A DNA stretch of 64,000 bases from Candidatus Latescibacterota bacterium (GCA_965204745.1 OZ242010.1:832001-896000), one strand, 5' to 3'. Positions 8,241 through 21,225 are shown, counted from the stretch's first letter. Numbers and translations are program-made. Notes: a model not told the origin generated them from the sequence alone.

Positions 8241-8636
8241 ATGTAGGGGCGATGCTTCGCCCTAAGATACAAGAGGCTATCTTGGGCATGACAGGTTCCC
8301 GGTGAGAAAGGGTGCGTTTTGGAGGTGACAAACAGGCCCAATTTACGAAGGGGCCCGTCTTTTTGCAACCCCCAAACAGCGAGCAATAGCATTTATGCAA
8401 CAACGCCCCAAGTAGAAGTAAAATTTTGCATCCTGAATCAGATTCATCATACGCATTGCATTCGAGCACTTGGTCTTGTATCTTAGACCAACTGCTGTTG
8501 GTCTAAGATGATGCAATATGCCGAGCGCGAGCGATCCCCTTGACGTTCCGCAGTCATTCAAAAATGCCATCCCAAAAGACCGTCAGATAAAACCATCACG
8601 CACAGCGTGCAAGGCCGTTTTCCATTGGAGCATACC

Positions 8637-9074
8637 GTGATTCTGAACGCCAAGGACATACAAAAAATTCTTCCGCACCGCTATCCCTTTCTGCTGGTGG
8701 ATCGCGTGACCGAATTGATCCCCGGCGAGCGGTTGGTCGCGTACAAAAATGTGGCGGCGAATGAGCCGTTCTTCCAAGGGCATTTCCCCGGCAATCCGGT
8801 CATGCCGGGCGTGCTCATCGTCGAAGCCCTCGCGCAGGCCGCGGCGATTTTGATGAGCGATGGGCGAGAGAGCGATTTGGTTCCCCTGTTCATGGGCATC
8901 GACAAAGCGCGTTTCAGACAGCAGGTCGTGCCCGGCGATCAGCTACAACTCGAAGTTGAAGTCGGGCAAAGACGCCGCAATGTGTGCAAGGGCCGCGGCA
9001 AAGCCACAGTCGATGGCAAAGTCGCCGCAGAAGCCGAATTGATGGCCCTGTTCGCGCGGCGCGAAGATCTGTAA
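8637..9074 (+). CDS. fabZ: 3-hydroxyacyl-ACP dehydratase
   Basis: [12 protein letters not shown] and [23 protein letters not shown] start after GGAG. Confidence 0.97.
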
Positions 9075-9106
9075 CTGAAGTCTTTCCCTGATTTTAGGAG
9101 ATTAGA

Positions 9107-10372
9107 ATGCTCAACATAGAAAACAGGACATTGTTCACCTGTGACAATTTGGACATAATGCGGGGAATCAATAGCGAAACCATTGATTTGATCTATTTGG
9201 ATCCGCCGTTTAACTCGAATCGTAACTATGCGGCGCCCATTGGTTCGCAGGCTGCTGGTGCCGCCTTCAAAGATACCTGGTCGCTTGATGATATTAAGAA
9301 GGAATGGGCAGAAGAGCTCGAGGCGAGCGATAAGGCAATTTGGGCGGCTATAACGATGGCGGGATATATCGGTGGGGAAAGCATACAAGCCTATTTGACT
9401 TATATGGCTATTCGGTTGATTGAGATACGGCGGATACTAAAAAAAACGGGGAGTATTTGGTTGCATTGTGATCCTACGGCGAGCCATTATTTGAAGGTGT
9501 TGATGGATGCCGTATTTGGGGAAAGAAGTTTCAAAAATGAAATTGTATGGCATTATCGCAGATGGACAGCCGCCTCTAAACGCTTTCAGAGAATGCATGA
9601 TATCCTTTTTTATTATACAAAAAGTGACCGGTATGTATTCACAAACCCTTTGCAGGCTTATGCCGACAAAAAATACATTGAGGATACCGTGCGAGGTATA
9701 GTTGATGGAAAGACGGTACGCTTAAAAGACGAAAAAGGTAACTATATCAAACGAAAAACCCAGAAAGGTGGTGTTTTGATGCATGATGTGTGGGAGGATA
9801 TCAATTTTATTGCCCCCACATCCAAAGAGCGTACCGGATACCCCACTCAAAAGCCTCTCGCCCTTCTTGAGCGCATTATTGAAGCCTCATCTAATGAAGG
9901 CGACGTTGTCCTTGACCCCTTTTGTGGATGTGCAACCACCTGCATTGCTGCTGAAAAACTTGGACGCCAGTGGATAGGCATTGACATAGAGCCTAAAGCG
10001 CGTGATATCGTAATAGATCGATTAAAAAAAGAGGTTGATAATTGGGGTCTTATCAAGGCGGCTGGTGGGAATCGGGCCGAAGTGATACATCACAAAAACG
10101 CGCCTAAGCGTACAGAAGAAGATGCTCCACGCCGTTCTCGTAATATCAAAGAGATACTATATTGGAAACAAGGTGGGAAATGTGCCGCGCCCTGTGGAAA
10201 AGATGGCACGGGACGAGAGTTGGATATTGATCTTTTTGAGGTTGACCACATACGCCCCAAATCTAAAGGCGGTCCTGATATTGATGAAAACTTACAACTG
10301 CTGTGCCCAACGTGTAACAGGCGAAAAGGCAATAAGACAATGCAATACTTGTTAGATGTTTTGACCAGGTGA
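9107..10372 (+). CDS. Beta-class N4C/N6A DNA methyltransferase fused to C-terminal HNH endonuclease
   Basis: IYLDPPF, YPTQKP, VLDPFCG; C-terminal CAAPC...EVDHIRPKSKGG...NLQLLCPTCNRRK. Confidence 0.92.
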   Translation: MLNIENRTLFTCDNLDIMRGINSETIDLIYLDPPFNSNRNYAAPIGSQAAGAAFKDTWSLDDIKKEWAEELEASDKAIWAAITMAGYIGGESIQAYLTYMAIRLIEIRRILKKTGSIWLHCDPTASHYLKVLMDAVFGERSFKNEIVWHYRRWTAASKRFQRMHDILFYYTKSDRYVFTNPLQAYADKKYIEDTVRGIVDGKTVRLKDEKGNYIKRKTQKGGVLMHDVWEDINFIAPTSKERTGYPTQKPLALLERIIEASSNEGDVVLDPFCGCATTCIAAEKLGRQWIGIDIEPKARDIVIDRLKKEVDNWGLIKAAGGNRAEVIHHKNAPKRTEEDAPRRSRNIKEILYWKQGGKCAAPCGKDGTGRELDIDLFEVDHIRPKSKGGPDIDENLQLLCPTCNRRKGNKTMQYLLDVLTR

Positions 10373-10487
10373 GTTGTGTAAAAAATAAGGAGATTATTCC
10401 TCTTCCCGACTCGGGGATGGGAATTTTTTTTATTTTTTTGACCTCCCATTCCGCTCTCCCTCCTCGCTTTGAGGAGGGAGTATTTTT

Positions 10488-19912: not shown

Positions 19913-20137
19913 CTTGTATCTTCGGGCGAGCACCGGGGCATCGCCCCTACGACGGGGATTGGGCGGGGCGGGCTGACAACTGACAACTTGAGAGGCACAG
20001 CGCGGTGGCCTTCTCCCTCTTGTATTTTTGGGCGAGCACCGGGGCATCGCCCCTACACACTGCTCACCTTTGAACTGGCTATCGCCAGTTGTACCCCGCT
20101 CGTGCCTTTTGTGCCTTTTGTGGCTTTTGTGGCTAAA
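19913..20137. repeat. Two REP-like hairpins (CTTGTATCTT-GGGCGAG...TCGCCCCTAC) plus 7-mer and 9-mer tracts
   Basis: Copies at 19913-19950 and 20019-20056; relatives at 8243-8273, 12465-12502, 21066-21103. Confidence 0.85.
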
Positions 20138-20150
20138 CTTTCATCTCACC

Positions 20151-20900
20151 TCATCCGCGGCCAATGTACGGCATTTTGGTCGCGGTGATCGTGAGGAATT
20201 GCACATTGGCGTCTAAGGGCAGGCTCGCCATGGAGAGCACGGCTTGGGCCACGCCGTTGACATCCATCGTGGGTTCGACCAAAGTCGTCCCATTGGCTTG
20301 CAGGACCCCGGCTTGCATGCGCTCGGTCATGTCGGTTGCTGCGTTGCCAATGTCGATTTGCCCGCAGGCGATATCGTACTTGCGCCCGTCGAGCGCGGCG
20401 GATTTGGTGAGGCCCGTCACCGCGTGCTTGGTCGCTGTGTACGGCGCGGAGTTGGGGCGGGGAACGTGCGCGGAGATCGACCCATTATTGATGATCCTGC
20501 CGCCCATCGGACGCTGGTCTTTCATGAGCTTGAACGCCTCCCGAATGCAGAGAAACACGCCGGTCAAGTTGGTGTCGACCACGGCTTGCCACTGTTCGTA
20601 CGTCAAATCCTCGAGGGCGATGCCACGCGGCGCGCCAATGCCCGCGTTGTTGAACAACACGTCGAGCCGCCCAAATTTCCCTTGGGTCTTGGCAAAGAGA
20701 TTTTCCACAGACGCCGGATCCCCGACATCCGTGGGCACGACCAAGGTCTTGGATGCGCCAGCTTCTCGCGCAGTGGCGTTCAAGGGGGCTTCGCGCCGGC
20801 CGGCCAGCACCACCGCATATCCCGCCTGAAAAAAGGCGAGCGCGGTGTGTTTGCCAATCCCGCTGCCCGCGCCCGTGATCATGGCTACTTTTTCAGTCAT
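20151..20900 (-). CDS. SDR family oxidoreductase
   Basis: [17 protein letters not shown]; the longer track ORF runs through repeats. Confidence 0.95.
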
Positions 20901-20982
20901 CGTCAAATCTCCTGATGGGTGAAAGGTTGTCGGTATTACATGATAACATCCCAAAGGCATAAATAAAAAAATCTCTCTCCAA

Positions 20983-21225
20983 AGCGGTAAGAGGTGAGAC
21001 GCAAGAGGCAAGAGGTGAGACGCAAGAGGGAAGAAGGCAAGAGGGGAGAGGCAAGAAGCAAGATCGTAGGGGCGATGATCCCGCGCTCGTCCAAAGATAC
21101 AAGAGGGGAGAGCGGTAAAAGGTAAAAGGTGAGACGCAAGAGGTGAGAAGGCCGCCCAAAGCGGTAAGAGGTGAGACGCAAGAGGGAAGAAGGCCGCCCA
21201 GCCACCCCAAAGGCGATCCGCGGTA
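20983..21225. repeat. 7-bp periodic tract (AAGAGGT/GAGACGC/AAGAGGC) with embedded REP; partly repeated inverted at 62630-62705
   Basis: Direct inspection. Confidence 0.85.

Follow-up and report, generated by a model that had tools for sequence, protein, structure and literature searches.

The window analyzed here, a 64,000-nt stretch from the genome of a Candidatus Latescibacterota bacterium (G000, 97.65% complete; the window is part of a single 5.48-Mb contig), contains a full copy of an IS110-family insertion sequence (IS) and five short units in which the first ten nucleotides of that element, the 10-mer CTTGTATCTT (hereafter the motif), stand in front of a palindrome resembling repetitive extragenic palindromic (REP) sequences. 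The five units, 31-38 nt long, had been described by a sequence-only reading of the same DNA and were all found as stated (Table 1), with the layout CTTGTATCTT-N-GGGCGA..TCGCCC-CTAC and with one mismatch in the 10-mer of two units (CTTATATCTT and CTTGTATTTT). Four of the five fold into hairpins with a 6-8 bp stem and energies of -7.1 to -7.4 kcal/mol that leave the 10-mer unpaired, and the fold of the unit at 21066-21103, with its decayed stem, reaches only -1.8 kcal/mol. The window holds 8 matches to the motif with at most one mismatch, compared to 1.70 expected (0 of 100 shuffles reach 8), and the genome holds 212 exact copies, compared to approximately 3 expected per strand (approximately 6 in total).

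The motif is also the start of the IS copy in the window (8051-8042) and of 53 of the 58 IS left ends classed in the genome, as the sequence-only reading had proposed. Direct reading likewise established that the 19-mer at 21094-21112 is identical to the IS junction at 8042-8060, and that the flank and core TCTCCCTCT are present at 20012-20020. The same reading likened the far end of the units, ATCGCCC-CT-AC, to the IS621 target; among the 12 distinct target-loop variants of the genome there is no guide for ATCGCCC. The left flank of unit 5, CTCTCCCCT, is the left target of the main IS subfamily. Unit 3 lies 9 nt past the start codon of a minus-strand gene starting at 19903, and unit 4 forms the left end of a composite repeat of approximately 140 nt.

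Table 1. Positions of the IS, its predicted guide loops and the motif-bearing units in the window.
Feature	Position	Strand	Description
Full IS copy	6757..8051	-	Includes the flanking CT cores at 8051-8050 and 6758-6757
Recombinase gene	6778..7782	-	335 aa from ATG
Predicted donor-binding loop	7863..7906	-	..AGAGTATCT..ATACAAGA..; reads donor AGAGTAT-CT-TGTAT
Predicted target-binding region	7932..7967	-	Reads target CCCCT-CT-TACC; internal loop in the minimum free energy fold
Unit 1	8243..8273	-	CTTGTATCTT-A-GGGCGAAGCATCGCCC-CTAC; putative stub 10-mer and short REP-like hairpin; left flank ..AGCCT
Further exact motif copy	8475..8484	+	Upstream of fabZ; the hairpin after it (AGACCAAC..GTTGGTCT) is of another kind
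Unit 2	12465..12502	-	CTTATATCTT (1 mismatch)-T-GGGCGAGCAC..ATCGCCC-CTAC; upstream of a 620-aa gene
Degraded, internally rearranged older IS copy	12891..13540	-	Left end CTTGTATCTTGGGATT; target loop ..CT-CCCG
Unit 3	19913..19950	+	CTTGTATCTT-C-GGGCGAGCAC..ATCGCCC-CTAC
Unit 4	20019..20056	+	CTTGTATTTT (1 mismatch)-T-hairpin-CTAC; left flank TCTCCCT
Unit 5	21066..21103	-	CTTGTATCTT-T-GGACGAGC..ATCGCCC-CTAC; decayed stem

By its sequence, the element is an IS621-like bridge recombinase element of the IS110 family. Its recombinase combines PF01548 (1.2e-24) and PF02371 (4.8e-20) in one protein (DEDD/RuvC-like and Transposase_20) and matches the PDB chains of ISCro4 (7.6e-40) and IS621 (5.8e-36). 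The genome carries 52 copies at the protein level (57 Pfam matches), which form one lineage with subfamilies of about 99%, 95% and 88% DNA identity, and neither these copies nor the motif show a strand bias along the genome. The copies start with CT-TGTATCTT (five with ..TGTATGTT) and end with ..AAGAGAGTAT-CT; in the listed copies a CT core stands before TGTATCTT and after GAGAGTAT, no target sequence outside the core is duplicated, and the empty site can be rebuilt from the flanks. The copy in the window runs from the left end TGTATCTTGG.. to the right end ..AAGAGAGTAT, and its flanks, CTCTCCCCT and TACCT, give a heptamer array in uninterrupted phase once they are joined. Judged from the sequence, joined IS ends would place TTGACC 18 nt before TATCTT; the corresponding circle-junction sequence has 0 matches in the genome.

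To either side of the core, the specificity of the element appears to be set by a non-coding left end of approximately 260 nt with two predicted guide loops, the fold of which shows an internal loop with GGCCCCU facing GUAAGAU. A scan of this left-end RNA against Rfam returned no family at threshold, and only chance microRNA matches on the heptamer palindrome. The predicted guide CCCCT occurs together with flanks reading ..TCCCCT (37 of the 53 listed) or ..CCACCCCT (2). Members of the main subfamily have CTCCCCT as the left flank in 34 of 58 copies, compared to 7.6% of array heptamers, and T[A/G]CCT as the right flank, their site being arrays of CTYNCST heptamers. Genome-wide there are 527 arrays of at least three such heptamers, with 2863 units (8052-8240 and 20960-21210 are examples in the window), often arranged as long inverted arrays around a GGCC center.

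Predicted guides and flanks co-vary in three subfamilies of this genome and in two further genomes. Subfamily C combines the guide CGCCT and AGTAAGA with the flank CTCGCCT (three of four copies) and the right target CT-TACT, and three old copies combine TTCCCC and AGGAAGAG with a flank ..TTCCCC in all three. Among the 41 genomes searched for the element and the motif, only G000, G016, G018 and the distant G036 yielded the IS; relatives in G016 carry the guide TCCTCCT with GAAAAGA and have the flanks CCYCC and CT-TTTC, and those in G018 carry CTCGCCTCT with GGGAGA and have the right flank CT-CCCGT in 14 of 18 cases. The right-donor sequence is kept in IS relatives at 76-84% and at 54% protein identity. 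The predicted guides bear out the earlier proposal that the motif comprises the CT core and the right-donor half of the donor read by the bridge RNA. A role of CTTGTATCTT as a target, with its second CT as the core, was excluded, since the guides read CCCCT-CT-TACC and AGAGTAT-CT-TGTAT.

With at most one mismatch, the motif occurs 398 times in the genome: 58 copies are IS left ends, 138 (92 of them exact) are separated by 0-2 nt from a following GGGCGAGCAC-type hairpin of the GGGCGAG family to which the units of the window belong, 16 stand before a second palindrome (GTAGGCACAGGCGTAGCCTAC), and 186 lie in other contexts. The heptamer CTTGTAT is found between canonical heptamers in only 2 units of the 527 arrays, compared to 33 for CTTACTT, and we rejected the possibility that the heptamer arrays are filled with footprints of the present IS. 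A motif followed by a C-starting heptamer occurs 4 times in G018, 11 times in G016 and twice in G001. A third class of contexts, considered as another mobile element, proved to be the region downstream of paralogous genes for large repeat proteins, such as those at G000:C1:2613400-2616900, where an open frame exceeding 1090 aa contains abundant GGLVG-type repeats.

The relationship between the motif and the IS is most directly legible at the second hairpin family, GTAGGCACAGGCGTAGCCTAC (the GTAGGC hairpin), of which there are 217 copies in the genome. Searches with explicit patterns recovered 73 empty junctions reading ..CCCC-CT-TCCT-hairpin and 15 filled junctions reading ..CCCC-CT-TGTAT-CT-TCCT-hairpin. 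In addition, five IS left-end junctions occur at TTCCCC-CT, four of which were identified individually and are all truncated old copies, and one truncated right-end junction reads GAGAGTAT-CT-TCCTC-hairpin. This CT is precisely the one that the guide of the old IS subfamily specifies. Deleting exactly 7 nt converts 11 of the 16 filled copies into the sequence of an existing empty paralogue, present up to 31 times, and the removal of 3, 4 or 10 nt yields an empty paralogue for none of the 16. The filled copies have at least five left contexts, about ten of the copies belonging to one duplicated gene-flank family; the region downstream of the GGLVG-type repeat-protein genes carries the second hairpin, with the 7-nt stub in about ten copies.

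Read from these sequences, the motif in the second family represents 7 nt (TGTATCT) inserted at a core that a guide specifies, with IS-occupied and empty states at the same junction. Because the empty state, the IS-occupied state (through both left-end and right-end junctions) and the +7 state share one guide-specified CT, we interpret the motif as an IS-derived stub. The sequence-only reading had offered recombination scars of IS110 as one of two options for the hairpin units, and this option fits best, being shown for the second family and extended to the GGGCGAG family by analogy.

Such a stub would begin with the CT core, continue with the first five left-end bases (TGTAT) and another CT, and close with a T contributed by the flank. 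An inserted copy reads left target-CT-TGTATCTTGG...GAGAGTAT-CT-T.., in which GTATCTT recurs as a direct repeat, once within the left end and once across the right-end GTAT, the core and the flanking T. Loss of the IS between the two GTATCTT repeats would leave left target-CT-TGTAT-CT-T.., that is, the filled state. This loss could proceed by slippage between the 7-bp repeats or, alternatively, by the recombinase, whose left-donor guide would pair with the second CT of the left end and recombine it with the right-end CT; the second CT is preceded by TTGTAT, which matches four of the seven left-donor bases. At G000:C1:2459527-2459560, two tandem CTTGTAT heptamers precede a 17-nt piece of the IS left end that is fused to the final bases of the right end (..GTAT-CT-T), and the sequence of this 17-nt stub suggests another microhomology loss (AGTA).

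Across genomes, exact counts of the motif are 212 in G000, 242 in G016 and 294 in G018; the motif also exceeds its controls in G001 (56), G014 (37) and G009 (35), and reaches at most 17 copies elsewhere, so that it is abundant only in these three IS-bearing genomes. The IS relative in G036 comes from another family of hosts, and there the motif is not amplified (8 copies, with 8 in the control). Together with the guide reading, this abundance indicates that the link between motif and IS110 element that had been read from the window alone is real. The hairpin itself, with its partner module and the heptamer arrays, is distributed more widely, being present in 19 of 20 congeners.

Taken together, these data make it moderately probable that the 10-mer before the hairpins is the 7-base scar of a bridge-RNA-guided IS, and that the relation proposed by the earlier reading is reversed, the hairpins being probably landing sites, as with IS621 and REPs, rather than cargo. 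The GTAG-headed hairpins would thereby be neighbors or targets of insertion. For the GGGCGAG family, and hence for the five units, a stub origin is likely by analogy with the second family. Motif-less GGGCGAG hairpins often read heptamer-CTT-Y-hairpin, which is the expected empty form, and of 113 filled sites, 60 have CCT or CCC immediately preceding the motif, compared to 5 of 35 empty CTT-Y sites. The flank CTCCCCT accounts for 15 of the 34 canonical-heptamer flanks of units (p = 5e-5 against an expectation of 15%), or 15 of the 138 units.

Some one hundred independent events beside hairpins are unlikely, and amplification must therefore be assumed. By the same analogy, one or a few stub events beside a GGGCGAG hairpin were likely followed by multiplication of the filled form with the composite repeats, through a process independent of the IS. 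Such IS-independent multiplication is also suggested by the units of G001 and by a TATCTT-T subfamily in G016. In G001, a single conserved unit composed of the motif, GAAATGATGAT and a GGGCAACC hairpin, with an 11-nt spacer, accounts for 14 of the 20 motif copies sampled.

Several observations weigh against a stub origin of the units. Among the GGGCGAG family, none of the 92 exact units has an empty paralogue, right-end-like sites lie in or abut the unit in 0 of 86 cases, and a guide for T-Y-GGGCG is found in none of the 12 distinct target-loop variants of the genome. Stubs at the targets of the present IS are rare, as illustrated by the two in-array copies, and in G018 only one of the four motifs followed by a C-starting heptamer is at the usual right target CCCGT. 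G001 has its 56 motif copies and no remnant of the IS in either DNA or protein searches. Furthermore, the three IS-bearing genomes in which the motif abounds are closest kin (two genes of G000 are 84% and 91-95% identical to those of G016 and G018, compared to 75-82% for the others), so that one event may underlie the whole association between genomes. Lastly, the sequence fits slippage and recombinase action alike.

A doubtful extension of this reading is that the recombinase both makes the stub and goes on using it. Here, pairing of the left-donor guide with the element's own TTGTAT-CT would provide a second, nearly precise exit, and the heptamer would keep a working right-donor half-site, making the stubs both a fossil record of past guide specificities and live half-sites by which the enzyme continues to reshuffle the hairpin clusters of these sponge-associated genomes. 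The second CT would in this case serve as a partial left-donor match, akin to the half-match recombination of IS621 presented in the available parts of two preprints, in which left-donor-only or right-donor-only arm matches occur at boundaries and excision needs the donor arms only (10.64898/2026.08.31.748434, 10.64898/2026.08.14.744561).

A related explanation, which we consider unlikely, dispenses with the question of origin and holds that the stubs are active half-sites recombining with each other or with IS ends at CT, thereby swapping left flanks and shuffling the repeat clusters. In agreement with it, one left module, ending in ..CTCGCCATTCCCC or ..CACAGTTCCCC, continues beyond the motif into an IS body in some places and into the GGGCGAG hairpin or the GTAGGC hairpin in others. 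A 59-nt piece of the left end lies between two motif copies at G000:C1:2089409-2089468, with a donor-like inner junction (CCAT-CT-TG), and donor-only recognition is reported as sufficient for IS621 excision in the portion of the preprint available (10.64898/2026.08.31.748434). However, guide-programmed insertion followed by stub formation accounts for this shared module, slippage could also recombine identities of 10 nt, no reciprocal products or inversions were traced, and the absence of the circle-junction sequence from the genome also speaks against it.

The sequence-only reading had put forward, as its other option, that the 31-38-nt units are minimal non-autonomous passengers, cut and inserted at CT by the IS110 recombinase and its bridge RNA through the shared right-donor half. 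This proposal draws on the identity of all ten bases between the unit start and the IS left end, on the 100 matches of a BLAST search with the composite repeat that begin exactly at base 1 of the 10-mer, on the enrichment of the left target CTCCCCT described above, and on the two preprints, the accessible sections of which report a half-guide match as sufficient for IS621 recombination (10.64898/2026.08.31.748434, 10.64898/2026.08.14.744561). The structure of the units nevertheless argues against it: they lack a left donor, their right end ATCGCCC agreeing with the left donor AGAGTAT at two of seven bases, no right-end-like sites accompany the GGGCGAG units, and the indel of the second family comprises 7 nt and not a whole unit.

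The comparison among genomes argues in the same direction. The hairpin is genus-wide, and in the IS-free G008 the motif is upstream of 0 of 20 sampled hairpins, 13 of which are preceded instead by a sequence of the type CCA[CT]C[CT][CAT]AAC; the IS-free G001, conversely, has motif copies. Of the 51 non-IS copies sampled in G018, 36 belong to motif-C-GGACAGGCAC hairpin units, with CTCCCGT (9) and CTCCCCT (6) among their left flanks, and only 3 of the 51 sampled flanks are of the left-target type of the resident IS. Of 20 hairpins sampled in G016, 3 have the motif immediately adjoining and 4 have it at a distance of one heptamer. Flanks as such give a mixed picture, with CTCCCCT enriched in G000 and none of seven motif-bearing flanks sampled in G016 resembling the CCYCC target of its IS. 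We therefore regard mobilization of the units by the bridge recombinase as very improbable. A REP-associated tyrosine transposase (RAYT), named by the same reading as an alternative mobilizer, is likewise unsupported, as PF01797 gave 0 matches in G000 in a search that was positive in 6 of 14 genomes used as a control.

Scarcely tenable is the explanation by coincidence, in which CTTGTAT would be one of the host's own heptamer variants or signals (such as a -10-like TATCTT) within repeat clusters, for although the motif is in phase with the CTYNCST arrays, exceeds its control in the IS-free G001, G014 and G009, and lies in composite clusters that are genus-wide, CTTGTAT is nearly missing from the arrays themselves, the 10-nt match is exact to an end kept in IS relatives of another host family in which the motif is not amplified, and insertion takes place at a guide-specified CT with IS junctions at the same site. 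The earlier reading had named a common heptamer variant in genomes lacking this IS110 as a possible refutation, and the two parts of this concern had different outcomes: the heptamer is not common inside arrays, with its two copies, but G001 does carry the motif without the IS.

The stub reading is a variant of known IS110 biology. Like IS621, ISPpu9 and ISPpu10, the element has a CT core on both sides, no inverted repeats and a non-coding left end with two loops (here predicted), and it inserts into short host repeats, the old subfamily described here being programmed for the flank of a GTAG..CTAC palindrome. REP targeting is described for ISPpu9 and ISPpu10 in the parts of the literature available; unlike such REP-targeting elements, the main subfamily targets heptamer arrays and not a palindrome. 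The palindromes are in turn similar to REPs and bacterial interspersed mosaic elements in being extragenic, GTAG-headed, approximately 27 nt long, present in hundreds of copies and clustered with other modules, and unlike the REP/RAYT system in that no Y1 transposase (PF01797) was found in the genome.

Nearly precise excision and transposon footprints, as with Tn10/Tn5 in bacteria and Tc1/mariner and Ac/Ds in eukaryotes, involve loss between short direct repeats at the element's ends and leave few element bases behind. Compared to such footprints, the repeat involved here is a likeness of the donor halves (GTAT-CT on both sides) and not a target duplication, and the putative remnant is a defined heptamer. 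Genome editors that leave no scar are being developed from bridge recombinases, whose natural excision is assumed to restore the target. If the stub reading is true, the +7 remnant would point to a side reaction, or to a deletion route of the host, for which such editors should be checked; stubs would also allow extinct guide specificities to be read from genomes and would explain part of the modular make-up of the repeat clusters in these genomes.

IS110 excision is described as restoring the target in the available part of PMC13626964, in which the +7 stub does not feature. The two half-match preprints, within the portions available, treat locus growth, partial circles and off-target insertions, and contain neither a 7-bp remnant nor hundreds of solo half-sites; the terms 'non-autonomous', 'miniature' and 'MITE' (miniature inverted-repeat transposable element) do not occur in the available text of the one on expanded IS110 loci (10.64898/2026.08.14.744561). 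Supplementary junction tables aside, the accessible literature on bridge RNAs, IS621 and IS110 excision yielded no account of IS110 elements leaving a defined remnant behind.

Variation at individual loci was also considered. The spacer upstream of the 620-aa gene has its repeats wholly rearranged in G016, G018 and G001, with unreadable breakpoints. In four public runs the contigs are short and break in the repeats; unit 3 is spanned by contigs of X1 and X14, and the match of a 1497-nt X5 contig to the window (10 differences in 609 nt) ends at 19908, five bases before this unit. Metagenome contigs scanned for exact 27-mers gave no match. The public runs containing the window stretch are mostly labelled sponge metagenome.

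Other dispersed repeats and IS copies accompany these units. A repeat of approximately 125 nt at 8494-8618, upstream of fabZ and starting 10 nt after the motif copy at 8475-8484, has 76 BLAST matches in G000 and at least 25 copies in G016 at 74-80% identity. At 20067-20107 lies a module, TTTGAACTGGCTATCGCCAGTTGTACCCCGCTCGTGCC, with an inner palindrome and approximately 335 copies in G000, outnumbering the neighboring hairpin unit; a related module follows the hairpin in the IS-free G008, and a loose search for the GCGCGGT.GCCTTCTC module gave a noisy set of matches. A hairpin census requiring strict arm pairing returned too few members to resolve subfamilies. A tandem pair of IS copies at G000:C1:1121592-1124182 is separated by one heptamer and reads right end-CT-TACCT-CT-left end. 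The degraded copy at 12891-13540 has a target loop like that of the IS of G018, and its left flank, GAGAATCGT, mismatches its own guide. It abuts a CRISPR-like array (13573-14288) with 11 copies of a 30-nt repeat, GTTTCAATTCCATAGTGGTTCGATTAAAAG, at a spacing of 65-69 nt.

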